Assembly (NCBI RefSeq): GCF_021054785.1
Contig: NZ_CP088239.1
Span: forward strand, 1,740,001-1,772,000
From: Tannockella kyphosi
GTDB lineage: Bacteria > Bacillota_I > Bacilli_A > Erysipelotrichales > Coprobacillaceae
DNA length: 32,000 nucleotides
Direction: 5' to 3'
The translations under genes were made by a program, and so were the position numbers. This document shows positions 11,418-27,581 of this stretch, one piece after another (the stretch's first letter is position 1; every line of letters begins with the position of its first letter). A model generated the notes under the pieces. The model was given only the letters and a program-made list of their open reading frames with translations, did no database searches and had not been told where the DNA came from.

Positions 11418-11442
11418 TAAAAAAAAGGAGAGAAATCTCCTT
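11418..11442 (-). terminator. Intrinsic terminator after the MATE/EIIC_2 unit
   Basis: Minus RNA AAGGAGA-UUUC-UCUCCUU followed by a run of 8 U. Overlaps the stop codon at 11441-11443. Confidence 0.65.
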
Positions 11443-12445
11443 AAAATTTAGTTAACTTTAAATCTCCTGCTTTAATATAATTTAACTTACGGAATCCTTT
11501 GTAAATACCATAACAAATAAAGATCGGTAACAATATATCCACACACATTACAACTACCCATGAACTAGCACCCATAACATCAACCGCTGCAAGTGGTCCT
11601 ACAAATCCTGCAGTACCCATTCCTGAACCTACGGCACTACATTCAATACCAAAAACAATCGTTGAAATTGGTGCAATGATAGCACTAGTTATAATAGGTG
11701 GTAACCATATAATAGGATTACGAACAATGTTTTTAAATTGTAACATACTTGTTCCAATCCCAATTGCAATTACATCTCCAATATCATTATCATCCATGGA
11801 CATCATTGCAAAGCCAATCATTTGAGCACAACATCCTGCTAATGCAGCACCTGCTGCAAGACCAGATAAATTTAACATAACTCCAATAGCAGCACTAGAA
11901 ATAGGCGCAGTTAAAGCCATTCCCATTAAGACTGCTACAATAATAGACATAAAGAGTGGTTGCATAGCAACTCCTTGATTAATCAATTCTCCTATCCAAG
12001 TAATAAATAATGTAATATAAGGACCCACAAATGTAGAAACGATTCCTGCTACTACAATAGATGTAAACGGCACTAATAAAATATCAACCGGTGTTTTTCC
12101 CTGAACTAGCTTTGTTGCTTCTACAGCTGCAATAACAGCCACATAAGCACTAATTGGATTTCCAACACTAACAACACCATTCACATAAGTTCCTGCACCT
12201 ATTGCCCCCGCAATAACTGCAACGATTAAGTTTAAACCAGTTGCTCCAATTGCATAAGCAATACCAACTCCAATAGCTGGACCCATTAAGATACTTGCTA
12301 CACCACCCCAAGTAACAAGTTGTGTAATTCCACTATAGCTACCAATTTGTGTCAAAATAGTTCCTATAATTAAACTACTAAAAAATCCATAAGCCATCCC
12401 ATTTAAAGTCTTTACTACATAATTACCCTTACTAACCTTTGCCAT
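11441..12445 (-). CDS. PTS_EIIC_2-type membrane protein (orphan EIIC-like transporter)
   Basis: 334-aa, Gly/Ala-rich polytopic protein. The N-terminus MAKVSKGNYVVKTLNGMAYGFFSSLIIGTIL matches my memory of the PTS_EIIC_2 (PF13303-like) family. No EIIA or EIIB gene is adjacent. Confidence 0.65.
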   Translation of the reverse strand: MAKVSKGNYVVKTLNGMAYGFFSSLIIGTILTQIGSYSGITQLVTWGGVASILMGPAIGVGIAYAIGATGLNLIVAVIAGAIGAGTYVNGVVSVGNPISAYVAVIAAVEATKLVQGKTPVDILLVPFTSIVVAGIVSTFVGPYITLFITWIGELINQGVAMQPLFMSIIVAVLMGMALTAPISSAAIGVMLNLSGLAAGAALAGCCAQMIGFAMMSMDDNDIGDVIAIGIGTSMLQFKNIVRNPIIWLPPIITSAIIAPISTIVFGIECSAVGSGMGTAGFVGPLAAVDVMGASSWVVVMCVDILLPIFICYGIYKGFRKLNYIKAGDLKLTKF

Positions 12446-12455
12446 ACACTTTCCC

Positions 12456-13805
12456 CTATTCCGTAATATTCTTTATCCATCTTCCTTTTTGGAAAAAATA
12501 AATTGCTGCAAACATTTTTATAATATCTAACCCTTCTACAATCATATATAACGTAACAAGAGGTAGACCTGTAAACATAGACAGCATCGTTGATACAAAA
12601 ACTCCCCCTGCCCATAAAAATCCAGAATCCAATAGCAGTGTCGAAACAATATCTCCTCCCGCTCTAAGTATAAAGAAAACACAAACATTAATCACATAAA
12701 AAATCAATAATATTCCCTTCACTCTTAAAAGTATAGTTATCGTTTCTTGTACTACTAAATCTAAATTATATGCATAAGGAATATAGGCAGCAGCAACGAA
12801 ATTAATACTACATAATATAATAGCTACTATCCAACCAAAAAACAATAGTTTTATCGCATTATCTTTGGCTTCTTTTAACTCTCCTGCCCCCAGCCTCTTT
12901 CCAATCATAATTGAAACAGCCGAAGACAATCCTGCAAAAATAATAAACAAAATTTGAACAACCGTATCAACCACTGAAATAGAAGCGGCTAAATACTCAT
13001 CACATCGCATATAAGAAATATAAATAGCAGCTTGTCCTAAACTAAAAAAGATTTCATTTACTGTTAATGGAGCTGCTTTATGAAATATCCTTTGTACTAA
13101 ATCCTTATTAAAACGTACTATCTTTTTAACATCCAAACAAAAGAAATGTTTTGCACGAATAAGTGCAATAACATAAATAATCATTTCTACACATCTTGCA
13201 ATAACTGTTGCAATTGCTGCTCCTTGAACTCCCAATTCTGGAAACCCAAAATTACCAAAAATAAAACAATAATTAAAAAAAGTATTTGTTAGTACTGCAA
13301 CACTTCCTACTTTTAATTGTAACTTAGTAATACCAACACAACGCATGGACATCATACAACAAAAGCTTATTCCATAAGGTAGATAAGAAAACTTTGCATA
13401 TTCAATATAAGCCAAACTTTCATTCACTATTTCTGGTGTTGTCGTAAAAAAATGAACAATAAACTCTGGGCATATAAATAAAATACTAACAAAAAGAATT
13501 CCAATCAAAAGACAAAAAGACATACACGTATCAAACACTTCTTGACATTTATCCTCTTTTTTAGCACCTAAGTATTGTGATAAATAAATTCCTGCTGCTC
13601 CACAAAAGCCAAACAGAGTTGAATTATATAGAATATAAATCTTATTAGCGACAGTAACCGATGTCAACGCAATCCCACCAACACTACCAATCATAATATT
13701 ATCAATCAGACTGACAAAAGCAGTAATAAATTGCTGTGCCATAATAGGCAAAGCAATCATCGTAGTTTCTTTATAGAATTGTTTTGTCCCTATTAATCGT
13801 TTCAT
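12456..13805 (-). CDS. MATE-family efflux transporter
   Basis: 449 aa, about 12 TMs. N-terminal LPIMAQQFITAFVSLIDNIMIG is typical of MatE repeats. GGGAGA RBS. Confidence 0.9.
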   Translation of the reverse strand: MKRLIGTKQFYKETTMIALPIMAQQFITAFVSLIDNIMIGSVGGIALTSVTVANKIYILYNSTLFGFCGAAGIYLSQYLGAKKEDKCQEVFDTCMSFCLLIGILFVSILFICPEFIVHFFTTTPEIVNESLAYIEYAKFSYLPYGISFCCMMSMRCVGITKLQLKVGSVAVLTNTFFNYCFIFGNFGFPELGVQGAAIATVIARCVEMIIYVIALIRAKHFFCLDVKKIVRFNKDLVQRIFHKAAPLTVNEIFFSLGQAAIYISYMRCDEYLAASISVVDTVVQILFIIFAGLSSAVSIMIGKRLGAGELKEAKDNAIKLLFFGWIVAIILCSINFVAAAYIPYAYNLDLVVQETITILLRVKGILLIFYVINVCVFFILRAGGDIVSTLLLDSGFLWAGGVFVSTMLSMFTGLPLVTLYMIVEGLDIIKMFAAIYFFQKGRWIKNITE

Positions 13806-13855: not shown

Positions 13856-13931
13856 TGGTGGAGCCTAGCGGGATCGAACCGCTGACCCCCTGCGTGCAAG
13901 GCAGGTGCTCTCCCAGCTGAGCTAAGGCCCC
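13856..13931 (-). tRNA. tRNA-Ala (anticodon UGC), CCA encoded
   Basis: Reverse complement GGGGCCTTAGCTCAGCTGGGAGAGCACCTGCCTTGCACGCAGGGGGTCAGCGGTTCGATCCCGCTAGGCTCCACCA. G3:U70 identity pair present; anticodon loop CTTGCAC. Confidence 0.95.
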
Positions 13932-13947
13932 AAAGAATATTAAATTA

Positions 13948-14024
<77 letters not shown>

Positions 14025-14052
14025 ATAATGTAATAATCTGCAAATTAATTAA

Positions 14053-14129
<77 letters not shown>

Positions 14130-14318: not shown

Positions 14319-14492
14319 AAAAAAGATTATCTTATTAGACAATCTTTTGTGTTGCTTTTAGTATTTGATACATATCTTCTTCTAATAATACTTTGGCACT
14401 ACCTATTTTTCCTTTATTTCCTAGGGCACATAAGTTAGCCATTGTGCGAAGTTGTTGGTCTGTAGCGTTAACACCCAACTCTTCCATTGTAA
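14319..14492. repeat. Direct repeat copy 1 (174 bp): orphan copy of the Fe-ADH 3' end plus terminator
   Basis: Base-for-base identical to 21872-22045 by manual alignment. Identity breaks sharply at 14493 (CTGTCACC here versus TAGGCATA in copy 2) and at the end of the A-run on the outer side. Confidence 0.9.
14335..14492 (-). pseudogene. Displaced 3' fragment of the iron-containing alcohol dehydrogenase gene (last 51 codons)
   Basis: Encodes TMEELGVNATDQQLRTMANLCALGNKGKIGSAKVLLEEDMYQILKATQKIV, identical to the C-terminus of the 395-aa ORF at 21888-23075. In the track it is fused to 45 unrelated codons (ORF 14335-14625) with no RBS. Confidence 0.85.
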
Positions 14493-14640
14493 CTGTCACC
14501 ATAATACCATATTCCTTATAGTCATCACAAAACAGAGAGAATTGCCTATCAACTGAAATTCCCCTAGTCACAAAAAAGCTTATCAATAAATAAAATTGAA
14601 AATTCTTAAATGTAGCCTCAAACATAAATAAAAGAGAGTT

Positions 14641-15240
14641 TTATTTCTTGCTGTTCAACCTTTCACCAACCGCTCCTCCTGGATGAACTAAAGCAAAGCT
14701 TTCCACCTTGTAATCTATCTCTTCCATAATAGCAGTTTGCAAAACATGGAAAATCATGCATAACGCCGTAGACGAAGTCGTCCCTTGACAATTGTATCTA
14801 TCCACTTCCTTGTTTACATATTGCTTTAAAACTATATCCGATTCTAACGCCATTTCAGAACCCATATTCTCAGTTATAGTGATAACTTTAACTCCTTTGT
14901 TCTTACATATGCCAATTAAAGGAATCAACTCTTTTGTTTTTCCTCCTCTTGACGCTAAAACTAACACATCACCTTTTTGTAAAAAACCCATTCCGCCATG
15001 TATCGCTTCAGCAGGAGATATAAATTTTGATGGTCTGTCAATACAGCATAGTAAATGCGAAAAATGTTGGCACATAATTCCAGAATGCCCACAACCTGAA
15101 GTACCAATTCTAGGTGCATTAATTAAAATTTCAACTGCTTCTGATAACTTCACAACATCCAAATGAGAGCTCATTTCACTCAAACAACCAGACTCTATCT
15201 TAAACGCTTCATTAATTATTATCTTCGTTTCCTCTTTCAT
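14641..15240 (-). CDS. SIS-domain sugar-phosphate isomerase, KpsF/GutQ-like without CBS domains
   Basis: 199 aa. Contains IGTSGCGHSGIMCQHFSHLL (SIS phosphosugar loop region), VLASRGGKT and the C-terminal LVHPGGAVGERL motif typical of arabinose-5-P isomerase-type SIS proteins. Confidence 0.75.
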   Translation of the reverse strand: MKEETKIIINEAFKIESGCLSEMSSHLDVVKLSEAVEILINAPRIGTSGCGHSGIMCQHFSHLLCCIDRPSKFISPAEAIHGGMGFLQKGDVLVLASRGGKTKELIPLIGICKNKGVKVITITENMGSEMALESDIVLKQYVNKEVDRYNCQGTTSSTALCMIFHVLQTAIMEEIDYKVESFALVHPGGAVGERLNSKK

Positions 15241-15287
15241 ATTTTATCGATAAATAGCAATTAGCTATTTTCCCCTTCTACATTATT

Positions 15288-17273
15288 TCATTCTTTATAA
15301 CATAACTTCTTAAATATTTGATCTCCATTCATTTCTAGTAGTTTTCTTCTTCTATCAAAATCCTGACCAATTGAAACAATTTCTTTAAACAAGTCCGCAT
15401 GATCATCAATTCCTCTAGATGAAAAGCAAAATAGAAAATTAACAGATCTATCTCCTTCTGAAAATAAAATTCCTTTTTTTGAAACCAATAAACTTAATCC
15501 ATTTTCGTATACTTCATATTCTTTTCCTGCGTGAGCTAAAGCCACCCCACTGCCTAAAATTATATAATCACCATAGTCTTCAATATTTTGTATTGCCTTC
15601 TCAACAAAAGATGGTCCCACGCAGTTTCTTTCTACTAATTTTTTACCCGCTAATCTTATTCCATCTTTCCAGCTTGTAATTGTTTCATCCAATATCAACG
15701 AGTCCCTCGATAAAAGTTCGCCTATTAAGCTAACTTTCGAGTTATCACAACCAGATCTTTCAACATCCCATTGTCTACTAAAATTATCCGTGACACACTC
15801 AAACCTATCATTATCCATTCTCACATATCCATTCGTACTTTGAATTTCAAACGTCATTTTTTGAATCAAATTTATGTCTTCCATAGATAAAACAGGATTT
15901 ACTTTAATACTTTTTATATCTTGTTTTTCAACTTGTACAGTAGAAATTATTAAATCAATAGGTACAACACCTTCTAATCTGCTAGATACAGGAAAAACAC
16001 CCACTATTTCAAAATCAAAATAATTTCGTATTTGAACTTCTAAATACTTACCTGTTGCCATACTCCCAGGACATATAATAGCGACATTTAATTTTTTCAT
16101 TTTTTCATTTTCCTTCAATAAAGAAACACAGATATGAATAAGAATCGACTTTTTCATATTAGAGTTGATTCTGTAAGATAAGTATTTTTCTAATATGTAA
16201 ATATACTTATCTACAATACGTGAGAGATTCTGAAAGTCAATGAAGGGCATATTGCTACCTTTAAATTCAAATTCTAATTCGCCCCATTTTCTCATGTTTT
16301 TAATATGCAGTAAAAGAGAAGAAACTAGAGTATCATCAAAATGGAGGTTATATTTAGTTTCCTCATCTATTTTTGATAAAAAATACAATATAATTTCGTA
16401 TAACTCGACATCGTCAACATTTTTAACATATAAATCTATATTTTTATCTAATAAATACTTTCTAAAATATTCTAACAGATGATCATTTACTTTATAACCC
16501 AACTTATACCCAACGTACATCATTAAATTATCCATTCTATCATAATTTTGATTTAGTGAAACACTTTCATCTTTTGAAGAAAACTGCCAATTAAACGCAA
16601 CAAATAAATATAAAATCGTATTTAATAATGAATCATCTATAAAAACAAAGCCATTTATATTTAGATATTCTTGTGTTAAATCACATATCGTATTAAACGA
16701 ATTTTCACAATTAAAAGCATTTAAAATATATTGTTTAAAAAAAGACTCATCATTATTTTCTAATAATAATTTTTTCATTACATGGACAATTACAGTAAGT
16801 CTTTTCTCCAATGTTGTTTCTATTCTTACACCTTTGCCCGCTTCCGAAACAACAGACACATCTTTAGAATGGAAATATTCTTTCACTATATCAAAGTCAC
16901 TTAAAACAGTAATTCTACTCACATAAAGTTGGTCCCCCAATTCCTTCATAACAATATTATTATCCCATAATAGTAACAATATGATATATGTTTGTCTTTC
17001 TTCAGGACTTAATTTGTATTGATAGATGTCCATGCTTTGTAAAACTCTTCCGATCAAACCAAATTCTTTACCAAAACCAGGAGTAAGATATCCATCAGGG
17101 CTTAAAAGAATTTCCGGAATATTGTTCGACTTCAAAAAAACATTTATTTCAGCCAAATCTTTTCTTGCCGTTTTGTCTGATATTTTATATTTTTCCATTA
17201 TTAATCTAAGTGAATAATTTTTATCCCCCTTGAGAATAAGTCGTAAAATCTCTTCCGATCTTTTCTTCATTCT
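15288..17273 (-). CDS. PRD-domain PTS-controlled transcriptional activator (MtlR/LicR/BglG family: HTH, PRDs, EIIB-Gat-like, EIIA-Mtl-like)
   Basis: N-terminal HTH region (ISDKTARKDLAEIN). Central PRD-like helical repeats. EIIB-like NVAIICPGSMATGKY with Cys. C-terminal EIIA-like GVALAHAG with His. AGGAGGTG RBS before ATG 17273. Confidence 0.85.
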   Translation of the reverse strand, partial: RMKKRSEEILRLILKGDKNYSLRLIMEKYKISDKTARKDLAEINVFLKSNNIPEILLSPDGYLTPGFGKEFGLIGRVLQSMDIYQYKLSPEERQTYIILLLLWDNNIVMKELGDQLYVSRITVLSDFDIVKEYFHSKDVSVVSEAGKGVRIETTLEKRLTVIVHVMKKLLLENNDESFFKQYILNAFNCENSFNTICDLTQEYLNINGFVFIDDSLLNTILYLFVAFNWQFSSKDESVSLNQNYDRMDNLMMYVGYKLGYKVNDHLLEYFRKYLLDKNIDLYVKNVDDVELYEIILYFLSKIDEETKYNLHFDDTLVSSLLLHIKNMRKWGELEFEFKGSNMPFIDFQNLSRIVDKYIYILEKYLSYRINSNMKKSILIHICVSLLKENEKMKKLNVAIICPGSMATGKYLEVQIRNYFDFEIVGVFPVSSRLEGVVPIDLIISTVQVEKQDIKSIKVNPVLSMEDINLIQKMTFEIQSTNGYVRMDNDRFECVTDNFSRQWDVERSGCDNSKVSLIGELLSRDSLILDETITSWKDGIRLAGKKLVERNCVGPSFVEKAIQNIEDYGDYIILGSGVALAHAGKEYEVYENGLSLLVSKKGILFSEGDRSVNFLFCFSSRGIDDHADLFKEIVSIGQDFDRRRKLLEMNGDQIFKKLCYKE

Positions 17274-17315
17274 TTCACCTCCTCTAAAATATATCAAAAA
17301 ACATTACATACAAAT

Positions 17316-17339
17316 CAAGGACAGCCTAAGCTATCCTTG
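17316..17339 (-). terminator. Stable hairpin between the EIIB gene and the regulator gene (possible partial terminator or processing site)
   Basis: Minus RNA CAAGGAUAGC-UUAG-GCUGUCCUUG, a 10-bp stem with one G-U pair. No immediate U-tract follows. Confidence 0.35.
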
Positions 17340-17350
17340 TTATACAATTT

Positions 17351-17647
17351 CTATTCACTAGCCACTTCTAAAAGCAAATCAGTAATTTTTTTCTCTGTAG
17401 CCTCTTTATTAACACCTGATATCAAACCAAATACACTCATACATGGTTTTTCTAAGGGTTTGCGATAATTTGAGGTCGTTAAGATAACATCAACAGAATC
17501 TTGTTTACCAGGAATTTCTGATAAATTAGATTTTACAATTTTTGCTTCTATCCCTGCTTTTTTCACTAATACCTTTACTGCTTCTTGAGCAATTGTAGAA
17601 GTTGCTATTCCACTCCCACATGCAACCAATATTGTTATAGGTTTCAT
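17351..17647 (-). CDS. PTS EIIB component, galactitol (Gat) family
   Basis: MKPITILVACGSGIATSTIAQEAV carries the active-site Cys context of GatB-type IIB proteins. About 98 aa from ATG 17647 (AAAGGAAG RBS). Confidence 0.85.
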   Translation of the reverse strand: MKPITILVACGSGIATSTIAQEAVKVLVKKAGIEAKIVKSNLSEIPGKQDSVDVILTTSNYRKPLEKPCMSVFGLISGVNKEATEKKITDLLLEVASE

Positions 17648-17668
17648 TTTTCCGCTTCCTTTCATTAT

Positions 17669-18208
17669 TTATTCAATACTGGCATGTCTCTTTGACATGC
17701 TTTTGTTTTTATCTTCTCCAGCACTGCTTATCATCAAAACGATTCCATCAAAAATTATAAGTAACATTTGTTCAAACAAACTTCCTAAGGGTTGTACGCT
17801 TGCTTTAGACTCTGCATATTTAGTTGCTGTATCAATTCTAATTAAAGGCTCATGATTTGTACTTAGGGTTGAAGCATTACTTCCTGTTAAAACAATAACA
17901 GTAGCTCCTTGTTTTACTCCCTCATCCGCAGCATTACAAACGCTTGAAGTTTCTCCAGAAGCAGATGCAACTATTAACAAATCACCATCCTCGATTGAAG
18001 GCGTTGTGGTTTCACCAATAACATACGAGTTATACCCTAATTGCATCAATCTCATAGCAAATGTTTTCAACATTAATCCGGTTCTTCCTGTTCCATAGAC
18101 AAATATTCTTTTATGGCTATTTATCGCGCCAATAAAGGTACTCAACTCTTCGTCCTTCACTTGTCTGGCACTAACTTCTAATTCTTTTATAATTATTTCT
18201 AACGACAT
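17669..18208 (-). CDS. SIS-domain protein, 6-phospho-3-hexuloisomerase (PHI/HxlB)-like
   Basis: 179 aa. RIFVYGTGRTGLMLKTFAMRLMQLGYNSYVIGETTTPSI, LLIVASASGET and QPLGSLFEQMLLIIFDG match the PHI family pattern as I remember it. Confidence 0.7.
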   Translation of the reverse strand: MSLEIIIKELEVSARQVKDEELSTFIGAINSHKRIFVYGTGRTGLMLKTFAMRLMQLGYNSYVIGETTTPSIEDGDLLIVASASGETSSVCNAADEGVKQGATVIVLTGSNASTLSTNHEPLIRIDTATKYAESKASVQPLGSLFEQMLLIIFDGIVLMISSAGEDKNKSMSKRHASIE

Positions 18209-18229
18209 AATATATCTCCCACATTCTTT

Positions 18230-18673
18230 TTATCCGATTTTTTCTGAAAAATATTTGATTAAATCTTCGCCTTCTAGTTTTTGACACATATTCAAGCATT
18301 CTTTATCGTCCAAAAAAGTCATCATATTTTGCAAGAATTTTATATGCTGTGATGAATCTTTTATGGCAAGATTAAAAATAAGACTTGTTTCTATCTCTTC
18401 TTCGACATCATCCATCCTATTGAATGTAACGGGATGATCCAACTTAAGAAAGCATATGCAACTTTCCGTAATACCATCATCACCCGCATGAGGCATAGCT
18501 GTAGGAATTACAGTCGGAAGTCCCGTTGGATACTCTTCTTCACGGCAAATACAAGAGTTCGCAAATTCTTCTGAAACTATTCCTTTTTCATATAGTGCAT
18601 TCGCACATAGCTTAATCGCTTCATACTTGTCTTTTGCCGACCCTTTGATTACTACATATCTATTCGAGACCAT
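18230..18673 (-). CDS. PTS EIIA component (mannitol/fructose/galactitol-type, EIIA_2)
   Basis: 147 aa. Phosphorylatable His context VIPTAMPHAG. Sits between the EIIC and PHI genes. Confidence 0.85.
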   Translation of the reverse strand: MVSNRYVVIKGSAKDKYEAIKLCANALYEKGIVSEEFANSCICREEEYPTGLPTVIPTAMPHAGDDGITESCICFLKLDHPVTFNRMDDVEEEIETSLIFNLAIKDSSQHIKFLQNMMTFLDDKECLNMCQKLEGEDLIKYFSEKIG

Positions 18674-18688
18674 TTTAATTACCTACCT

Positions 18689-19945
18689 TTACCCAAAGAT
18701 TAATTTAAGGAATGAAACAAATAAATTCCCAGGATTCCATCCAAAATGTGAAGCAGTGATAAATCCTTCAATTTCTACACCTGTCACTGATAACATTTGT
18801 GTTGCTTCTGGTATAAACATATTTGCAAAAAATAAAGTTGTTGTCATCATAAAGACCATACATGTTAAAGTTCTAACAATATTTCCCTTACTAGCTAATA
18901 CACACATCGGAGCAACATAGCATACCTCTGCTAAAATAGCTAATGGGAAGAATCTCATATCTGGAAGCATTAATGCAATAAGAATAGTAACTGGAATCAT
19001 AACAGCTGTACAAGTGATACAAGCTGGATCTCCAAGACCTAAAGCAATATCCATCCCAATATAAATATCCGCATCAGGACCGATTTTTTTACGCATATAA
19101 TCATTTGCTGCTCCACCCATAGGAGATAAACCTTCCATCATGATACTAACCATTCTAGGAATTAATACCATTGCCGCTGCTACTCCCATACAAATTGTTA
19201 AAATACTAGAGAAACTTTGTTGAGTTAATACCCCTAAGAAAAGCCCTACAAAAATACCAATAACTGCTGGATCACCTAAAACTCCAAATTTTTCTGAAAC
19301 TCTATCAATATTAGCATCTAAATCTTTTACTACAGGAATTTTATCTATAATTTTATTAATTACATAACAAATTGGATATGTCCAAGCACAGAAAGATAAT
19401 GTTGTACATGTTGTCCCTTCTAACCCAAAATACTCAGACCATTTTGGAGCTAACCATTGCGCAAAGAATAATGCAATCATCCCACATCCAAATGCAACTG
19501 CAAAACCAAGAATCGCACTGCCAAATAGAGCATAAGCTAAAGCACCAGGAACTAAGAAGTGCATGAAATTCCAAATATCTACATTTAATACTTTTGTTAT
19601 TTTTAATCTTACTAAAATAATATTAACGATAATAATCGCTGGTACTACAAACACAGCAAACGGAACTGTCCAAGACGCCGCACCTAATGCAGCAAATCCA
19701 ATTTCCAATGCATCATAACCAGTACCCATACTACTATAATAAACCATTACTGGATCAATAGAGTCAATTAACAAAGTTACCGCTAAACATAACCCTTGAA
19801 AACCAATACCTACTAATAAACCAGCTTTAATAGATTGTCCTACTTTCAAACCAAAAAACACGCATAAAGCAGCAATAATTACCGGAAGTAATACTACCGC
19901 ACCCAAATTCATAAATGTTTGAGTAAATTCTAAAATAAATTCCAT
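18689..19945 (-). CDS. PTS EIIC component, galactitol (Gat) family
   Basis: 418-aa polytopic protein. The N-terminus ...LGAVVLLPVIIAALCVFFGLKVGQSIKAGLLVGIGFQGL parallels E. coli GatC (LGPTVMLPIVIIIFSKILGMKAGDCFKAGLHIGIGFVGI). Confidence 0.9.
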   Translation of the reverse strand: MEFILEFTQTFMNLGAVVLLPVIIAALCVFFGLKVGQSIKAGLLVGIGFQGLCLAVTLLIDSIDPVMVYYSSMGTGYDALEIGFAALGAASWTVPFAVFVVPAIIIVNIILVRLKITKVLNVDIWNFMHFLVPGALAYALFGSAILGFAVAFGCGMIALFFAQWLAPKWSEYFGLEGTTCTTLSFCAWTYPICYVINKIIDKIPVVKDLDANIDRVSEKFGVLGDPAVIGIFVGLFLGVLTQQSFSSILTICMGVAAAMVLIPRMVSIMMEGLSPMGGAANDYMRKKIGPDADIYIGMDIALGLGDPACITCTAVMIPVTILIALMLPDMRFFPLAILAEVCYVAPMCVLASKGNIVRTLTCMVFMMTTTLFFANMFIPEATQMLSVTGVEIEGFITASHFGWNPGNLFVSFLKLIFG

Positions 19946-20037
19946 ATTTTTATCTTATAGTGACTATCACTATATTTCCCTCTCATTTTATTATTACATA
20001 TTATTTAAATTACTTCTATATTTGCGTCTCAACTAAA

Positions 20038-20790
20038 TTAAGCAATTGTTCTACCGCCATCCAATAAAATAGTTTGCCCTTGTATATAAGAATTTTCAGG
20101 ATCCGCTAAGAAAATAGTTAAGTTTGCAACATCTTGTACCGTTCCCATTCTTCTCACAGGTATGGTATTTAACACTTTATCTAAACTCTCTTGTGTTGGG
20201 TAATTAACTCTCATCATTTCCCCTGTGTCTATTAGTCTAGGAGCAATAGTGTTAACATTCACACCTTTTGGACCTAGTTCTTTCGCCAATCCTCTCATCA
20301 ATCCTTCTCCTCCTGCTTTAGCAGCTGGATAAGGTACAGCTCCACCTGTTCCACTTAATGCAGAACCAGAACTTATATAAACAATAGAGCCTTTATTTGT
20401 TAAAAAATCATTATAAAACGCTTTAACCGTTGTAAATAAACCTCCTAAATTAATATTTACAATTTTATACCAGTCATCCATAGTCACATTATCCACAGTG
20501 CTTTTCATTGCGATACCTGCATTTAACACTAATACATCGATTCTTCCAAATTTTTCAAATACTGACTCACGAATATTTTCCATTGCTACAGCATCTGAAA
20601 CATCAGCAGGTAAAAATATTGATTCACAATATTTTTCACTAATTTCTTTAGCTGTCTGTTCTCCGAAATCTTTATTGTAATCTACTATAACTGTATTTGC
20701 GCCTAGTTTTGAAAATTGCATAGCAATTTCTTTACCTATACCGTGCCCTGCACCGGTAACTAAAACAACTTTATTTTCAAATTTTTTCAT
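20038..20790 (-). CDS. Short-chain dehydrogenase/reductase (SDR), FabG/SrlD-like
   Basis: Cofactor motif TGAGHGIGK, NAG motif and catalytic YPAAK (YxxxK). 250 aa. Confidence 0.9.
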   Translation of the reverse strand: MKKFENKVVLVTGAGHGIGKEIAMQFSKLGANTVIVDYNKDFGEQTAKEISEKYCESIFLPADVSDAVAMENIRESVFEKFGRIDVLVLNAGIAMKSTVDNVTMDDWYKIVNINLGGLFTTVKAFYNDFLTNKGSIVYISSGSALSGTGGAVPYPAAKAGGEGLMRGLAKELGPKGVNVNTIAPRLIDTGEMMRVNYPTQESLDKVLNTIPVRRMGTVQDVANLTIFLADPENSYIQGQTILLDGGRTIA

Positions 20791-20792
20791 AT

Positions 20793-21446
20793 TTACACCT
20801 CTGTAGCTAAAATCTGCTTTAACTCATCATAATTTTGTTTTGGAGTACTGCTAAAAATATATCCCCCTACAACTATCATATCAGCACCAGCTTGAGATAG
20901 TTTTGCGATATTCTTATTATTAACTCCTCCGTCTACTTCTATCTTGATAGGTCTTTCTCCTATCATAATTTTTAAATCTTCAATTTTCTTAATTGTATTT
21001 TCAATAAATGATTGCCCTGGTGTTCCAGGATTTATTGACATAAGTAACACATAGTCTAAATCATCCAATAAACATTCTAACACGCTAATTGGTGTCCCAG
21101 GATTTAAAACAACCCCTGCTGATCTTCCGGCTTTTTTTATTCGCTGTAGCATGTTATGGATATGTGGAGTTGTTTCATAATGCACTGATATCATCTCTGT
21201 TCCAGTTGCTATGATGTCATCTAAATGATCTTTTGGATTTGCCACCATCATATGGACATCAAATATCATAGTAGAAGCCTTCTTCATTTCTGAGATTTGT
21301 AATGCTCCAAATGCAATGTGCGATACATAATTTCCATCCATCATATCGACATGTAAAATTTCTGTCTTTTCATCTTCTAAAAATTCTAATTCTTCTTTCA
21401 ACTTCAGTATGTTGGCTCCAAAAATTGAAGGTAGTATTTGACTCAT
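20793..21446 (-). CDS. Ribulose-phosphate 3-epimerase family protein (RPE/AlsE-like)
   Basis: LPSIFGANILKLKEELEFLE..ILHVDMMDGNYV, FDVHMMV, LLMSINPGTPGQSF and EVDGGVN align with the RPE consensus. GAGGAGGG RBS before ATG 21446; the track start at 21485 is rejected. Confidence 0.85.
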   Translation of the reverse strand: MSQILPSIFGANILKLKEELEFLEDEKTEILHVDMMDGNYVSHIAFGALQISEMKKASTMIFDVHMMVANPKDHLDDIIATGTEMISVHYETTPHIHNMLQRIKKAGRSAGVVLNPGTPISVLECLLDDLDYVLLMSINPGTPGQSFIENTIKKIEDLKIMIGERPIKIEVDGGVNNKNIAKLSQAGADMIVVGGYIFSSTPKQNYDELKQILATEV

Positions 21447-21539
21447 CGTATCCCTCCTCATTTTACGATTTTTTTTGCAAAACAACTGATCAGGTTATTT
21501 TTGCCTTTCAATAGTTCATGAATTATTACACTTTAATTA

Positions 21540-21568
21540 TATAATTATGGTAACCATTCTCAAGTCAA
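21540..21568 (-). promoter_or_regulatory. Weak candidate promoter for the islet operon
   Basis: Minus strand TTGACT (21568-21563), 17 nt, then ATTATA. Other -10 registers are possible in this AT-rich stretch. Confidence 0.3.
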
Positions 21569-21871
21569 GAAAGGTTCATTTATAAGGAAGGGAATTTACA
21601 AATATTTGAAAAAATATATTTTACAAAGGTTTTTTGGCTTTTAGTATTGTAAATATACTCATATTATTGTGATAGTTTTTTTATTTAATGTATTGACTTC
21701 ATACAATTAAATGTTTTTCACCAACCATATTTTGTGGTAAAATATCCTTTTTTACCGCCTAAATAGTGATGGATACTGTAATAAATAGTACTTCTAAAAA
21801 AATATATCGCTTTTTTATATTTCTTTGCAAATCCATATTTTAATTTACGAGTTTAGCTAGCCTTTAAATAA

Positions 21872-22045
21872 AAAAAAGATTATCTTATTAGACAATCTTT
21901 TGTGTTGCTTTTAGTATTTGATACATATCTTCTTCTAATAATACTTTGGCACTACCTATTTTTCCTTTATTTCCTAGGGCACATAAGTTAGCCATTGTGC
22001 GAAGTTGTTGGTCTGTAGCGTTAACACCCAACTCTTCCATTGTAA
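21872..22045. repeat. Direct repeat copy 2 (174 bp): native 3' end plus terminator of the Fe-ADH gene
   Basis: Identical to 14319-14492. Contains the stop codon (21888-21890) and the terminator hairpin AAGAUUGUC-UAAUAA-GAUAAUCUU plus its U-tract. Confidence 0.9.
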
Positions 22046-23075
22046 TAGGCATATCAAGTTGGACAAAGAATTCTTCCAATGTAGCTATCCCTAAAAGAGC
22101 TGTTTTTTCTTTAGATGATTGAACTTTCACTTCCATTACATCGATCGCAAACTTCACAAAACGATCCAAACAATCTAGATAGACATATCTTGCCCAACTT
22201 GGCCATACTACTGCTAATCCAGCACCATGTGCCACATCAAACATACCACCTATTTCATGTTCTAATTTATGAGATGCAAAGTCTCTTTGATCATCTCCAA
22301 AACTAGTTAAGTCATTATGTGACAAACTAGAAGCCCACATAATTTCAGCTCTTGCTTGATAGTTACTAGGATCTTTTTTAAGAATTAATGAATTCTTGAT
22401 TACTGTTCTTAATAGACCTTCTGCTATTGCATCTGTCATTTCCATTTTAGAACCATGAATAAAATATCTTTCTAATGTATGCATTAAAATATCCACACAA
22501 CCACATGCTGTTTGATAATCCGGTAAAGTAATAGTTAGCTCTGGATTCATAATCGCAAATTTCATACGAATATTATCATTATTATGACCTCTTTTTAGGC
22601 CGCCATCTTCGTTGGTAATAACACAACTATTACTCATTTCACTTCCGGCAGCTGCTATTGTTAGAACACATCCTAAAGGTATGGCTCCTGACGAAGCTCC
22701 TTTAAATGAAAACAAATCCCATACATCTCCCTCATATTTCATTCCCCATGCAATCGCTTTTGAGGAATCAATAACACTTCCTCCACCTACTGCTAAAATA
22801 AAATCAACAGATTCTTTTTTACATAATTCTATTCCTTCATATACTTTAGAAAGTCTTGGATTTGGAACTACTCCACCTAATGATACATATTCGATACCTG
22901 CTTGTTTTAATGATGTTTCTATTTCATCTAATAAACCTGTTTTTTTAGCACTATTACTACCATAATGTAATAATACTTTTTTACATTGTTGTTCTTGAAT
23001 TAATTTTCCTACTTCTTTTTGTGATTCTTTACCAAAAACCACTTTTGTAGGTGCATAAAATTGATAAATACTCAT
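21888..23075 (-). CDS. Iron-containing alcohol dehydrogenase (butanol dehydrogenase/YqhD-like)
   Basis: 395 aa. GGGSVIDSSKAIA NAD(P)-binding motif. Metal-binding His region HTLERY...HKLEHEIGGMFDVAHGAGLA. Confidence 0.9.
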   Translation of the reverse strand: MSIYQFYAPTKVVFGKESQKEVGKLIQEQQCKKVLLHYGSNSAKKTGLLDEIETSLKQAGIEYVSLGGVVPNPRLSKVYEGIELCKKESVDFILAVGGGSVIDSSKAIAWGMKYEGDVWDLFSFKGASSGAIPLGCVLTIAAAGSEMSNSCVITNEDGGLKRGHNNDNIRMKFAIMNPELTITLPDYQTACGCVDILMHTLERYFIHGSKMEMTDAIAEGLLRTVIKNSLILKKDPSNYQARAEIMWASSLSHNDLTSFGDDQRDFASHKLEHEIGGMFDVAHGAGLAVVWPSWARYVYLDCLDRFVKFAIDVMEVKVQSSKEKTALLGIATLEEFFVQLDMPITMEELGVNATDQQLRTMANLCALGNKGKIGSAKVLLEEDMYQILKATQKIV

Positions 23076-23132
23076 AATAATTCCTCCCTTATCCTCTTAT
23101 TCATTCTACTCTCATTTTTCAATAATTACTAT

Positions 23133-23163
23133 AAAAAAAGAGTTTGTCATAAGACAAAACTCT
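23133..23163 (-). terminator. Intrinsic terminator of metG
   Basis: Minus RNA GAGUUUUGUC-UUAU-GACAAACUC (one bulged U) followed by 7 U. Overlaps the metG stop codon. Confidence 0.65.
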
Positions 23164-25072
23164 ACTTTATTTTCGTACCATTCGGTAAATTTTCAACACT
23201 AAGTACTTCTAATACTTTCTTTTTACTTCCTGCTAAAATCATACCTTGTGATTCTACACCACGAAGCATTGCTGGTTTTAAGTTTGTTACCACAATTACT
23301 TTTTTACCAATCATATCTTCTGGACAATAGAAATCAGCAATACCAGATACAATTTGTCTTGTTTCTTTTCCAATATTTATTTGAGAAACTAACAATTTAT
23401 CTGCTTCAGGATGTTTTGTACAAGATTCAACTGTACCTACTGTTAATTCTATTTTCATGAAATCTTCTATTCCAATTAAGTTTTCATCTACTACTGGTTC
23501 TTTTTTAGGTTGCATTGCTTCTATTTTCTTTTCAATCTCTTTAGGATCTAATCTTGCAAATAACATTTCTGGTTTCTCTACTACTTTTGTACCATTAACA
23601 TAATTACCAAATGATTCTAAAGATGCAAGATCTTTTAAATCTGTATTAATTTGATCAAGGATTTTACTTGCAGTGGCAGGTAAATAAGCTTCTAACATAA
23701 CTGCGGCAAAGCGAATACTTTCTACTAAGTTATATAATACTGTTTTTAATCTTGGTAAAGAAGCTTCTTCTTTAGCAAGTGCCCAAGGCATTGTTTCATC
23801 AATGTATTTGTTTGTTCTTCTAAGTAATGTGAAGATTTCATCTAAAGCATCACTTGCTTTATGATCATTCATTTTAGCTAATGCCTTAGCAGGCATAGCT
23901 AAAGCAATATCAATTAGTTCTTGATCTATCGCTTCCACTACTCCTGAGTTTTCTACTACTCCATCAAAATATTTATTACTCATTGCAATCGTACGATTTA
24001 CTAAGTTACCTAAAATATTAGCTAAATCAGAATTAATTCTTTCTACTAATAAATCCCAAGTAATTGTTCCATCATTATCATAAGGAATTTCATGTAATAC
24101 ATAATAACGTACTGCATCAACCCCAAATAAATCAGCTAAATCATCCGCATAAATAACATTTCCTTTTGACTTAGACATCTTCCCTTCTCCTTGTAATAAC
24201 CAAGGATGCCCAAATACTTGTTTAGGTAAAGGAATATCTAATGCCATTAACATAATAGGCCAATAAATAGTATGGAAACGAACAATATCTTTCCCTATTA
24301 AATGTAAACTTGCAGGCCAATATTTCTTATATAACTCTCCATGATTCCCATCTACATCATAACCTAATCCTGTAATATAATTAGTTAATGCATCAATCCA
24401 CACATATACCACATGTTTTGGATCAAAATCAACAGGAATAGACCAAGTAAAAGTAGTACGAGAAACACATAAATCTTGTAATCCTGGTTTTAAGAAGTTA
24501 TTCATCATTTCATTTTTTCTAGAAACTGGTTGAATGAATTCTGGATGTTTTTCGATATGTTCAATTAAACGATCTTGATATTTTGATAATTTAAAGAAAT
24601 ATGCTTCTTCTTTTGCATCATGTACATCACCCATACAATCAGGACATTTTCCATCTACTAATTGTGATTCTGTAAAGAATGATTCACAAGCAGTACAGTA
24701 TTTTCCTTCATAATGACCTAAGTAAATATCTCCTTGATCAAATAATTTTTTAAATATTTTTTGTACTTGAGATTTGTGATAAGCATCTGTTGTACGCATG
24801 AAACGATCATAAGTAGTATCCATCATATCCCAAATACGTTTTACTTCTCCTGCTTTTTCATCCACAAATACTTGTGGTTCAATACCTGCTTCTTTTGCTT
24901 TTAATTCAATTTTTTGACCATGTTCATCTGTTCCTGTTTGGAAATAAACATCATACCCTTGTAATCTTTTTGTTCTTGCAATTGCATCTGCTAAAATAAT
25001 TTCATAAGTATTCCCAATATGAGGTTTACCAGAAGTATAAGCAATAGCCGTTGTTAAATAATATTTTTCCAT
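23162..25072 (-). CDS. metG: Methionine--tRNA ligase with C-terminal tRNA-binding (Trbp111/EMAP-like) domain
   Basis: HIGN (HIGH) motif, KMSKS motif and Zn knuckle CTACESFF...CPDCMG. 636 aa. Confidence 0.95.
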   Translation of the reverse strand: MEKYYLTTAIAYTSGKPHIGNTYEIILADAIARTKRLQGYDVYFQTGTDEHGQKIELKAKEAGIEPQVFVDEKAGEVKRIWDMMDTTYDRFMRTTDAYHKSQVQKIFKKLFDQGDIYLGHYEGKYCTACESFFTESQLVDGKCPDCMGDVHDAKEEAYFFKLSKYQDRLIEHIEKHPEFIQPVSRKNEMMNNFLKPGLQDLCVSRTTFTWSIPVDFDPKHVVYVWIDALTNYITGLGYDVDGNHGELYKKYWPASLHLIGKDIVRFHTIYWPIMLMALDIPLPKQVFGHPWLLQGEGKMSKSKGNVIYADDLADLFGVDAVRYYVLHEIPYDNDGTITWDLLVERINSDLANILGNLVNRTIAMSNKYFDGVVENSGVVEAIDQELIDIALAMPAKALAKMNDHKASDALDEIFTLLRRTNKYIDETMPWALAKEEASLPRLKTVLYNLVESIRFAAVMLEAYLPATASKILDQINTDLKDLASLESFGNYVNGTKVVEKPEMLFARLDPKEIEKKIEAMQPKKEPVVDENLIGIEDFMKIELTVGTVESCTKHPEADKLLVSQINIGKETRQIVSGIADFYCPEDMIGKKVIVVTNLKPAMLRGVESQGMILAGSKKKVLEVLSVENLPNGTKIK

Positions 25073-25093
25073 TTTCCTTTTTCCTTTCTATAT

Positions 25094-25310
25094 AAAAAAA
25101 CGCCCTAAATAAAGGACGAAAATATCGCGGTACCACCTTTTTTACATACCATGTATGTCACTCAAATCTTTTAACGCAAGAATACGTTTATCTCTACTAA
25201 TTTCAAGATAACTGCTCATGGGCCATCCAATCAAGTATCACTCTTAGTTTCCACCAACCACTAAGTCTCTATTAGCCAACTTTCTTTTCTTCCAATCATC
25301 GCATTTACTA
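25094..25310 (-). promoter_or_regulatory. T-box leader (tRNA-Met-sensing transcription attenuator) of metG
   Basis: Minus strand carries the T-box core GGTGGTACCGCG (25137-25126) just 5' of the terminator CGUCCU-UUAUUU-AGGGCG + 7 U. An AGAGA box lies in stem I. AUG specifier candidates occur in GGAUGGCCCAUGAGC (25228-25214). Confidence 0.8.
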
Positions 25311-25314
25311 TTAA

Positions 25315-25343
25315 ACTTTATCAAACTAAGATACTAATGTCAA
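25315..25343 (-). promoter_or_regulatory. Sigma-A type promoter of the metG T-box leader
   Basis: Minus strand TTGACA (25343-25338), a 17-nt spacer, then TAAAGT (25320-25315). Confidence 0.55.
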
Positions 25344-25364
25344 CCTTTTCCCATTTAGTATGAA

Positions 25365-25394
25365 ACAAAAATAGTGGGAAACATTCCCCACTAT
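25365..25394 (-). terminator. Intrinsic terminator of the DegV gene
   Basis: Minus RNA AUAGUGGGGA-AUGU-UCCCCACUAU (10-bp stem) followed by UUUUUG. Confidence 0.7.
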
Positions 25395-25398
25395 TTCT

Positions 25399-26238
25399 TT
25401 ATTTTTTAATTGTTTGTACTGCAATACAACCAGGTCCACCTTGAGTAATAAAGGCTGGTGTTAAATCATACATTCTTATATCATTGTTAGGGAATGCATC
25501 TTTTACAATCTCCATCACTTCTTTTGCTTGATCAAAAACATCAGCATGACTAACAGTAATTAAATAACTATCATCTACACCTTTTTCTTTTAATCCTTCA
25601 ACAATTACTTTCGCAGCACCTTTCATTGTTTTCTTTACACCATATTTTTCTATACGTGTACCGTCATCATTTGTACACATAATAGGTAATATTTTTAATA
25701 AACCACCTACTCTAGCTGCAACTGGAGTTAAACGACCTCCTCTTTTTAAGAAGTCAAAATCTTGAGGAACTAAGAATGATTTTCCTGTAGGAATACGTTC
25801 TTCAATATATGCTTTTATTTCTTGTAAAGATTTTCCTTCACTTTGAAATTCTAATGCTTTTTTTACTAAATAACGATGTGGTCCACATAATATTTGTGTA
25901 TTTACTACATGAATATTATCTTTATTTTTAGCTAGTTCTCTAGCTCCTTGAGTACTTTTAAATGTTCCAGATAACCCATCTGCCATACAAAGACATAATA
26001 TCTCTTCTTTTGTTTCTTCATACAGTTCAAACACTTCCATTGTTTCCCCAACAGATGGTTGTGAAGATATAGGTACAAATCCCGCTCTTACTTTTTCAAT
26101 AAATTCAGGGCTTTGTATTTCAACTAACTCTCTTGAACTTACATTATCGATTGTTACACTTAACGGTAAGACATGAAACCCTAATTCTTCTGCTTGTTTT
26201 GGTGTAAACATTGTTGATGTATCAGATACTATTTTCAT
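25399..26238 (-). CDS. DegV-family fatty-acid-binding protein
   Basis: 279 aa. MKIVSDTSTMFTP...PLSVTIDN...ISSQPSVGE pattern typical of DegV/FakB proteins. Confidence 0.9.
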   Translation of the reverse strand: MKIVSDTSTMFTPKQAEELGFHVLPLSVTIDNVSSRELVEIQSPEFIEKVRAGFVPISSQPSVGETMEVFELYEETKEEILCLCMADGLSGTFKSTQGARELAKNKDNIHVVNTQILCGPHRYLVKKALEFQSEGKSLQEIKAYIEERIPTGKSFLVPQDFDFLKRGGRLTPVAARVGGLLKILPIMCTNDDGTRIEKYGVKKTMKGAAKVIVEGLKEKGVDDSYLITVSHADVFDQAKEVMEIVKDAFPNNDIRMYDLTPAFITQGGPGCIAVQTIKK

Positions 26239-26361
26239 ATGCGCCTCCTATAGCTCTACAATAATTTATTTTGATAGTCTAAACATACCATATTTTCATA
26301 AAAAGGTATAGCAAACAATAACTTTTTATCTATTTTTGATAAAAAATAGACTATATTGTCA

Positions 26362-26546
26362 TCATTCTATTCCTTTTGCTTGTAAATCCTTTGTTTTTTC
26401 TTCAGTAGACAATGCTTCAAAAGGTATTAAATCAGGGTGTTTTCTATTTAGATTATCTCTAGACCCTAGTTATTCCTATCATTCTTTTTTATAGAAATGA
26501 ACTTTATCTTTGTTTGTTGCTTTTTTAAACAATGCATTATGTACGT
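26362..26546 (-). pseudogene. Possible decayed RyR-domain (PF02026-like) gene remnant
   Basis: Minus strand 26463-26362 reads SRDNLNRKHPDLIPFEALSTEEKTKDLQAKGIE*. This resembles the RyR motif G.xRD...K.HP.LVPY..L.EEEK.KD. The upstream piece MNVHNALFKKATNKDKVHFYKKE* is separated from it by several stop codons. Confidence 0.3.
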
Positions 26547-26560
26547 TCATCCCGCATTAT

Positions 26561-26584
26561 AAAAGGAAATATTCATTTCCTTTT
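26561..26584. terminator. Hairpin after the PHP gene
   Basis: AAAAGGAAAT-ATTC-ATTTCCTTTT, a 10-bp AT-rich stem overlapping the stop at 26583-26585. The U-tail is weak. Confidence 0.45.
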
Positions 26585-27491: not shown

Positions 27492-27581
27492 TTCTTTATC
27501 TTAATCATACCAAAGTATTGAAATAAGGCAATGATTTGACTTCTATTTGTGTTACAATATTTGAAAAAGGGAGGACGAGTA

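Follow-up and report, generated by a model that had tools for sequence, protein, structure and literature searches.

Campbell-type integration, or insertion-duplication, is known from suicide plasmids, from circular donors in naturally transformable Firmicutes and from laboratory genetics. A gene end may also be duplicated by a phage: e14/phage 21 inserts into the icd gene of E. coli, at its 3' end, and leaves the fragment icdC, and excision of e14 recombines both icd 3'-end copies (PMC13626634). CIMEs are cis-mobilizable elements, decayed ICEs or IMEs that have kept their att sites for the integrase of a related element (PMC5704250).

In the window of Tannockella kyphosi DNA analysed here (the whole stretch of 32 kb), a sugar cassette lies between two copies of the end of an alcohol dehydrogenase gene. 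As in e14/icd, the presumed insertion is at the 3' end of a protein gene, one copy completes that gene, and a C-terminal fragment of about 50 codons stands at the far end. However, the prophage e14 encodes an integrase, is excised on SOS induction and has icd ends that differ at a few positions, whereas the T. kyphosi segment is free of phage and integrase genes and its copies are identical. The cassette resembles CIMEs in being without integration and transfer genes, but differs from them in that neither a remnant of these genes nor a cognate element was detected. The repeat, at 174 bp, is also far longer than the att repeats of CIME-forming ICEs, which are a few tens of bp.

The repeat pair and its surroundings

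By machine comparison, positions 14319-14492 and 21872-22045 are identical at 174 of 174 positions in direct orientation, with a start-to-start spacing of 7553 and 7379 bp intervening; the preliminary description had given the same identity and distance. Identity stops abruptly on both sides, at the outer edge with 14318 T versus 21871 A and at the inner edge, which lies inside a codon, with 14493 C versus 22046 T. The other direct repeats of at least 40 nt in the window are the tRNA-Ile pair (95 nt) and one 46-nt family (67-72% identity), and a chance origin of the 174-bp repeat is excluded.

Copy 2 (21872..22045, minus strand) is the native 3' end of an intact gene for Fe-dependent alcohol dehydrogenase (Fe-ADH, below ADH; 395 aa; 21888..23075, minus strand), the GC3 of which (0.164) is like that of the flanking genes. 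It covers the 51 whole codons 345-395, preceded by the last 2 nt of codon 344 and followed by the stop codon and 16 nt of the putative terminator, in agreement with the earlier reading of copy 2 as the native gene end with its last 51 codons and stop. The putative intrinsic terminator of ADH is an AU-rich hairpin that encloses the stop codon and is followed by a U-run (21874..21901, minus strand). It has 12 pairs including A4:U4 (-11.1 kcal/mol, z = -4.6 on folding against shuffled sequence), and was not called by a consensus terminator scan. The U-run, counting those U residues that pair with the A-tract, is 8 in copy 2 versus 6 in copy 1, and the outer repeat edge lies approximately at its end. 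The '9-bp hairpin' and the identity ending 'exactly' at the U-tract, as described previously, are therefore approximately right.

Copy 1 (14319..14492, minus strand) lies 189 bp upstream of tRNA-Ile. It has the same hairpin (14321..14348, minus strand; U-run of 6), which is a putative terminator between the cassette and the promoter of the tRNA-Ile, tRNA-Ile, tRNA-Ala operon (13856..14129, minus strand; promoter-like TTGACG-17-TATTAT at 14177-14149). On the other side is junction DNA (14493..14640, minus strand), composed of a 15-nt gap and 133 bp of unrelated sequence reading in frame into copy 1. Copy 1 is thus an orphan, as had been noted, but not a bare fragment, since it is fused in frame to this unrelated DNA. 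The resulting chimeric ORF of 96 codons (14335..14625, minus strand), with 45 novel codons and the last 51 of ADH, begins 15 nt past the last cassette gene. Such an open frame from the 133-bp piece into the repeat was kept in just 2.5% of shuffles. Inspection of the sequence by eye revealed no Shine-Dalgarno motif for the ORF, strain differences within it are 3 nonsynonymous to 1 synonymous, and the ORF is probably not functional. Within the orphan, the alignment of an ADH-family HMM (approximately 120 ADH homologues) starts at profile position 340 and covers just the repeat plus four residues; no frame of the 133 bp gave a match.

The cassette and its origin

The segment between the copies carries eight genes, all on the minus strand, which form one Gat-family PTS operon with its own promoter; the earlier impression of a self-contained, one-strand sugar cassette was correct. 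From the ADH side, they encode a protein of the ribulose-phosphate/allulose-6-P 3-epimerase family (RPE-like, 217-aa call; 20793..21446), an SDR oxidoreductase (20038..20790), a PTS EIIC of the galactitol/ascorbate family (EIIC-GAT, PF03611; 18689..19945), a PTS EIIA (EIIA_2, PF00359; 18230..18673), a SIS protein of the 6-phospho-3-hexuloisomerase (HxlB) family, above its NCBIfam cut-off (17669..18208), a PTS EIIB of Gat/Ula type (PF02302; 17351..17647), a regulator of the operon that combines HTH domains at its N-terminus with an EIIA_2 domain at its C-terminus (660-aa call; 15288..17270), and a second SIS-domain protein, sugar-phosphate isomerase-like and with a KpsF/GutQ-like SIS domain only (14641..15240). 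The assignment to the Gat family follows the EIIC-GAT, which is accompanied by its cognate EIIA_2 and by an EIIB of Gat type. The PTS parts match NCBIfam Gat subunits best, yet these matches fall under the equivalog cut-offs, and among the cassette proteins only HxlB and RPE clear NCBIfam cut-offs. The set of EIIC-GAT, EIIA_2, Gat-type EIIB, RPE/AlsE-like epimerase, SDR and HxlB-like isomerase is thus like that of Gat/Ula/Sgc-type PTS operons, but matches no characterised operon at equivalog level.

Upstream of these genes are a promoter/operator with leader (21486..21603, minus strand; TTGAGA-16-TATAAT at 21563-21536) and an AT-rich spacer of 268 bp (22% GC; 21604..21871, minus strand) extending to copy 2. 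In this spacer the ADH-family HMM detected no ADH remnant, and the spacer had no match elsewhere. The promoter motif TTGTAAATT...CTTGACTTGAG...TATAAT...AATAAYTCATGA is common to homologous operons of other Firmicutes. The same operon occurs there in a 7-gene form at unrelated sites, with EIIC at most 77% identical and each operon at the GC content of its own host. Neither flanking repeats nor integrases were found around the homologous operons inspected, nor was the second SIS gene, which has the highest GC3 of the cassette (0.305).

The GC3 of the cassette is 0.229, compared with 0.155 in 17 flanking genes (Mann-Whitney p = 2.7e-4), and that of its genes exceeds that of all flanking genes. 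The cassette is compositionally foreign and ADH native-like, which favours an insertion beside a resident ADH.

A Pfam search revealed no integrase, transposase or relaxase domain, and no IS or phage domain, in the segment or in the other ORFs of at least 80 aa in the window, in line with the earlier remark that the segment has no recombinase gene. Phage, plasmid and viral collections gave no match. Non-coding DNA amounts to 148 bp at one end (133 + 15) and 386 bp at the other (268 + 118), plus short spacers, too small a space for a decayed integrase to be hidden. An e14/icd-type prophage was rejected, as the segment contains no phage genes or integrase, and so was a composite transposon or IS insertion: there is no transposase, no terminal inverted repeat lay at the cassette ends among the inverted pairs reported, and the duplication is 174 bp, not short.

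Junctions and strain variation

The preliminary description had proposed that the junctions be checked for an assembly artefact. Independent short-read metagenome assemblies (k=31, at least 9 runs), with contigs that match the window at 99.7-100% identity, contain three of the four junctions: ADH to repeat, cassette end to repeat, and repeat to cassette promoter. The contigs stop exactly 30 nt (k-1) inside the repeat at these three junctions, and the cassette contig is 7439 nt, that is, 7379 + 2x30. Since independent contigs break k-1 nt into it, the repeat is real. Note that in such de Bruijn-graph evidence the integrated form looks the same as a circle together with an empty site. A query of a protein collection did not return the full-length ADH protein, which is consistent with every k-mer assembly breaking inside ADH at the repeat. 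That the repeat was collapsed or wrongly joined when the reference genome was assembled is hardly credible: mis-assembly can produce perfect repeats, and the fourth junction (repeat to tRNA spacer) was not recovered in the independent assemblies, but the breaks at both sides of the cassette and on the ADH side were all reproduced.

The repeat structure is fixed and present in every population sampled. The sampled strains differ from the reference by about 0.1-0.3%, so that zero differences in 174 bp are unremarkable; the recent event or ongoing gene conversion previously invoked for the perfect identity is not required.

Empty sites (ADH-repeat-tRNA), circles, excised alleles and cassette-free strains were not found in any collection, and the nearest genomes are distant and non-syntenic upstream of the tRNAs. 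The tRNA-MATE-EIIC2 block is kept in relatives, and just upstream of the tRNAs synteny breaks and other genes are found.

Origin of the repeat

We consider it somewhat probable that a duplicative insertion, by a Campbell-type single crossover with no element-encoded recombinase, left the repeat behind as its scar. As such a scar should have, the insert is flanked by same-orientation copies of a chromosomal segment, one copy is continuous with the intact ADH while the other is joined to non-ADH insert DNA, and the insert is foreign to the target locus in GC3 and in its unrelated contexts elsewhere. The topology suggested initially, with the target gene intact and its displaced 3' end on the far side, stands, as copy 2 ends the intact ADH and copy 1 abuts non-ADH DNA. 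A Gat-family PTS operon, acquired by horizontal transfer together with its promoter and regulator, would have landed between ADH and the tRNA Ile-Ile-Ala operon, and after recombination both ends of the insert would carry the last 155 coding nt of ADH, the stop codon and the terminator. The simplest one-step route would be a single crossover by the host homologous recombination machinery with a donor that already bore the 174-bp ADH piece, either as a circle or as a fragment that had been turned into a circle or a concatemer. A donor circle with exactly 174 bp of ADH needs a prior, unobserved illegitimate event, and the in-frame opening of the 133-bp piece into the repeat is treated as a coincidence under the Campbell model. 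Closely related genomes, empty sites and circles were looked for without success, so that the insertion mechanism is still something that we infer.

A decayed site-specific element of the CIME or e14/icd type, the repeats being attL and attR, is an unlikely alternative. An integrative element would have targeted the ADH 3' end with a surrogate 3' end of its own, and its integrase and transfer genes would since have been lost or would act in trans. The topology equals that of e14 in icd with its icdC fragment, the definition of a CIME (att sites retained, integration and transfer genes lost) fits, and the insert adjoins a tRNA cluster where synteny breaks. In fact, direct repeats with the target-gene 3' end are present as in CIMEs, but the segment, the window and the homologous operons contain no integrase, relaxase or transfer remnants. 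The lack of any recombinase domain or pseudogene in so little non-coding space, the homologous operons without flanking repeats or integrases, and the unmatched phage, plasmid and viral collections also argue against it, as does a repeat that is perfect over 174 bp and ends sharply, where a short core would have diverged arms around it.

A rearrangement in situ, in which the cassette and ADH were already neighbours and a larger tandem duplication was followed by deletions sparing the last 174 bp, also seems unlikely, and slightly more so. Tandem duplications and deletions are common in bacteria, no circle or transfer would be necessary, and the inner repeat edge within a codon is like a deletion end-point. 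However, one duplication and two deletions would be the minimum, three events instead of one, the outer edge nearly coincides with the end of the terminator U-run, and no further trace of ADH remains beside copy 1. The composition of the cassette is also unlike that of ADH and the flanks, so its arrival by insertion would still be required.

It is very improbable that copy 1 is the remnant of an old ADH paralogue, with gene conversion from the intact ADH having made its last 174 bp uniform. Copy 1 seems to be under no constraint and yet matches copy 2 perfectly, and the adjoining 133 bp show 4 SNPs between strains; this would suit gene conversion, but the low strain divergence explains the identity without it. 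The HMM matches the orphan from position 340 on and nothing in the 133 bp, and an old tandem adh paralogue was rejected, as neither these 133 bp nor the promoter-side spacer has ADH similarity.

Consequences and comparison with known systems

If the single-crossover reading is correct, copy 2 would complete ADH and end its transcription before the inducible promoter of the cassette is reached, copy 1 would separate the cassette from the tRNA promoter by a hairpin and U-run, and the 96-codon chimeric ORF would be a by-product. RecA-dependent precise deletion between the 174-bp repeats would restore ADH-terminator-tRNA, and the 7.55-kb unit would be open to tandem amplification through them. Terminator activity of the hairpins, dependence on RecA and a circular intermediate are all inferred. 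There is a slim chance that the cassette is a recombinase-free mobile unit, which would form a 7.55-kb circle via RecA, be taken up by a cassette-free T. kyphosi cell through transformation or transduction, and re-enter by a single crossover at the resident ADH 3' end. If so, the stolen gene end would be a portable homology arm with terminators that insulate ADH and the tRNA operon, and a metabolic operon would have gene-free intraspecies mobility.

T. kyphosi is a seaweed-fermenting symbiont of the fish gut. With perfect 174-bp repeats on either side, the operon is predicted to be lost or to gain copies as one unit, which could matter to strain-level variation in sugar or polyol use. The locus would also be a natural example of a metabolic operon embedded without a mobility gene, with the target gene and the neighbours apparently left transcriptionally intact.

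The cassette insertion is most likely a tidy case of a known type of event, not a new mechanism. As in Campbell integration, direct copies of the homology segment lie on both sides of the insert and the target gene is whole again; the event would require no site-specific recombinase and would be reversible by homologous recombination between the repeats. Unlike laboratory Campbell integration, the event in T. kyphosi would be a natural one, fixed in the species, and the insert is a metabolic operon without replicon or marker.

Structure of the repeat and its recovery from independent assemblies

The two copies of the 174-bp repeat (R), the orphan copy 1 at 14319-14492 and copy 2 at 21872-22045, were identical at all 174 positions in a repeat search and a direct string comparison, as the preliminary description had found by eye, and are separated by 7379 bp. 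The sequence match stops sharply at both edges, and no microhomology or extended partial similarity was seen past either boundary. Apart from the duplicate tRNA-Ile genes and a 46-nt family with 67-72% identity, the 32-kb window contains no other direct repeat of at least 40 nt; the 174-bp repeat is thus genuine and far beyond what chance would give. Copy 2 consists of the last 2 nt of codon 344 of the Fe-ADH gene, codons 345-395, the stop codon and 16 nt more. A scan of R and the junction regions against Rfam gave no match.

The ADH stop codon lies within the loop region of an AU-rich hairpin in R (12 pairs counting A4:U4, -11.1 kcal/mol, z = -4.6 against shuffles), which is followed by a U-run of 8 in copy 2 and of 6 in copy 1. 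This putative terminator was not called by a consensus terminator scan because fewer than three of its pairs are G-C. With R at both sites, ADH and the cassette are each followed now by this hairpin and a U-run.

Logan contigs (k=31) from at least nine metagenome runs were 99.7-100% identical to the window. One of them, L001, corresponds to positions 21901-14463 (7439 nt), which matches the 7379 bases of unique sequence extended on either side by exactly 30 nt (k-1) of R. Three others (L002-L004) terminate at the same base, 14463, while L104 begins at 21901, and L093, which carries the methionine--tRNA ligase (MetRS) and ADH genes, stops at 22016, having entered copy 2 by 30 nt at its inner edge. 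An assembly artefact was rejected, since the contig ends sit where the repeat should break the de Bruijn graph. Another contig, L105 (SRR27046595; 22045-17838), crosses the whole of R with 100% identity into the cassette promoter. Three of the four junctions (ADH to R, cassette end to R, and R to promoter) are present in independent assemblies, in which R is a branch point too, whereas the junction from R to the tRNA spacer was not recovered. The k-mer graph fits the integrated state and an empty site plus a circle equally well. Note that L105 starts exactly at the inner R boundary and passes the outer one unbroken, the branch from R to the tRNA spacer being missing from the SRR27046595 graph, probably owing to low coverage or tip clipping; this is the one assembly in which R departs from two-in, two-out behaviour.

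In an exact look-up, the full-length ADH was absent from a collection of 15 billion proteins (without the reference genome), though its neighbours were present, which fits the interruption of the gene at R in every k=31 assembly; a truncated ADH of 353 aa was called in L093.

Gene order at the locus

All the relevant genes lie on the minus strand. In the order of that strand, a T-box leader (25109-25308, 129 bits) upstream of the MetRS gene is followed by MetRS and Fe-ADH (395 aa, 23075-21888), R copy 2, an AT-rich spacer of 268 bp, a promoter and leader of 118 bp, and the eight cassette genes (14641-21446), which encode an RPE/AlsE-like epimerase, an SDR, EIIC-GAT, EIIA, an HxlB-family isomerase, EIIB, an HTH/EIIA regulator and a second SIS protein. 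After a 15-nt gap come 133 bp of unrelated DNA, R copy 1, a 189-bp spacer with a promoter-like TTGACG-17-TATTAT, the genes for tRNA-Ile, tRNA-Ile and tRNA-Ala, and the MATE transporter gene.

Probable foreign origin of the cassette

The GC3 of the eight cassette genes (0.229, range 0.19-0.31) was higher than that of 17 flanking genes (0.155, range 0.11-0.20; Mann-Whitney p = 2.7e-4), ADH has 0.164, and every flanking gene but one lay below the cassette genes. The extra SIS gene (14641-15240) has the highest value in the cassette (0.305) and is absent from the homologous operons inspected. The preliminary description had proposed looking for the cassette at other loci, and the same operon with seven genes, RPE-SDR-EIIC-EIIA-SIS-EIIB-regulator, was indeed seen in other Firmicutes, in unrelated neighbourhoods and with the hosts' own GC content (closest EIIC, 77% identical). 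The promoter region of T. kyphosi carries the motif TTGTAAATT...CTTGACTTGAG...TATAAT...AATAAYTCATGA, common to these operons, and the promoter must therefore have moved together with the operon. Taken together, the GC3 values, the unrelated contexts of the homologous operons and the shared promoter motif argue that the cassette is an insert. Neither long flanking repeats nor an integrase were found at the homologous loci. Plasmid, phage, IMG/VR and JGI metagenome collections contained neither the cassette nor R, only a distant SDR-RPE similarity on enterobacterial plasmids.

The adjacent SDR and RPE genes (20038-21440) match an SDR-rpe pair on Klebsiella, Enterobacter, Pantoea and E. coli plasmids (ten matches, 66-70% nucleotide identity), and these two genes seem to form a widely shared module. 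In the homologous operons a 77-nt promoter/operator is duplicated internally, before the epimerase gene and before EIIC (8069-8145 and 9850-9926 in L096; also in L098 and L099). Of the two positions, T. kyphosi keeps a conserved copy ahead of the epimerase gene (21486-21603), whereas that ahead of EIIC (19946-20037) looks degenerate. The -10 box is followed by a conserved near-palindrome, AATAATTCATGAAYTAT.

Divergence between strains

The species Tannockella kyphosi is an isolate from the hindgut of Kyphosus sydneyanus, a herbivorous fish, and the literature naming the genus consists of Kyphosus gut studies. The metagenome strains differ from the reference by 30 SNPs in 9.6 kb on the MATE side, 10 in 1.5 kb from ADH to the MetRS 3' end, 3 in 386 bp of the cassette promoter region, 4 in the 133-bp junction piece and 2 in 6.8 kb of cassette coding DNA. 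The R boundaries are the same in all these strains, and the event that produced them therefore predates their divergence. The perfect identity of the copies had been taken as a sign of a recent event or of gene conversion. Neither is needed: for 1% down to 0.3% divergence per site, the probability of zero differences in 174 bp is 0.18-0.59, so that identity is expected, and ongoing gene conversion is possible without being required. The low SNP density of the cassette was not adopted as evidence for a recent sweep, because the density is patchy in the flanks too, with a 4.7-kb SNP-free tract. In L093 (6.4 kb) all 10 SNPs fall in ADH and the MetRS 3' end (22142-23632) and none in the next 4.7 kb (23633-28382), a mosaic typical of recombination tracts.

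From an ATG 133 bp upstream of copy 1, a 96-codon chimeric ORF runs in frame into the repeat; such a frame stays open in 2.5% of shuffles, which is somewhat unlikely by chance. No Shine-Dalgarno motif was read upstream of the ATG, the 96-aa product had no exact match in the protein collection without the reference genome, and the SNPs in the piece (three nonsynonymous, one synonymous) gave no sign of constraint. These four are all transitions, lie within 68 bp (14555, 14584, 14613 and 14622) and distinguish all four metagenome contigs from the reference; they adjoin copy 1, next to 6.8 kb of cassette genes with only 2 SNPs (Fisher p = 2e-6), and the cluster may reflect a lack of constraint at the junction or a small patch of recombination.

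Homologous loci in relatives

In a set of 5.8 billion protein clusters no ADH homologue exceeded 68% identity (best, 67-68%). The only one with usable context, in L107, was rejected as an empty-site locus: it is not syntenic and sits after a class II aldolase. A MetRS-anchored scan of 185k species genomes found no ADH, tRNAs, MATE or cassette near MetRS in the closest genera (Massilimicrobiota and others, 81-84%). The MATE homologues closest in sequence (65-67%) keep the order tRNA-Ile-Ile-Ala-MATE-EIIC2, the tRNAs being confirmed only for L108; upstream of this block are Amidase_3 and other genes, with neither ADH nor MetRS. Since relatives keep the tRNA-MATE block and differ upstream, the tRNA block is ancestral, with synteny breaking just upstream of its promoter. 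No empty site was found around ADH, MetRS or MATE homologues.

The stand-alone Ile(GAT)-Ile(GAT)-Ala(UGC) operon (13856-14129), followed by MATE and PTS_EIIC_2 (11441-13805), is kept in L108 (9680-12365) at 67% protein identity; in L109 (10001-12366, 65%) the MATE-EIIC2 pair is kept. Upstream of the block the genes vary from genome to genome, which suggests a rearrangement hotspot.

Proposed mechanism of insertion

The preliminary description had proposed that a circular element inserted at the ADH 3' end. The repeat structure on which this was based is confirmed, the interpretation as a whole is supported in part, and the mechanism is one that we infer. A circular or concatemeric donor carrying R, the promoter, the cassette and the 133 bp would, by one homologous single crossover with the resident ADH 3' end, give exactly the observed structure; the donor would itself need an earlier illegitimate join. 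A multi-step duplication and deletion could also lead to a cassette flanked by R, but needs more events, three at least. An origin like that of a CIME or of e14 would fit the topology, but, as the preliminary description had noted for recombinase genes, neither the segment nor any other ORF of the window contained a recombinase, transposase, relaxase or phage domain from Pfam, and the non-coding DNA in the segment leaves too little room for the remains of an integrase; both points speak against such an origin. An old tandem ADH paralogue homogenized by gene conversion lacks support, because in the orphan the alignment of an HMM made from some 120 ADH homologues is confined to R plus four residues, with no match in any frame of the 133-bp piece or the promoter-side spacer (six-frame translations); a 28-nt, 75% similarity at 21630-21657 was judged to be chance.

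Recombination between the R copies through RecA should be able to remove the 7.55-kb unit precisely or to amplify it in tandem. The structure is most likely the scar of a natural insertion-duplication, with a PTS operon acquired horizontally between the copies, and is a known kind of event.
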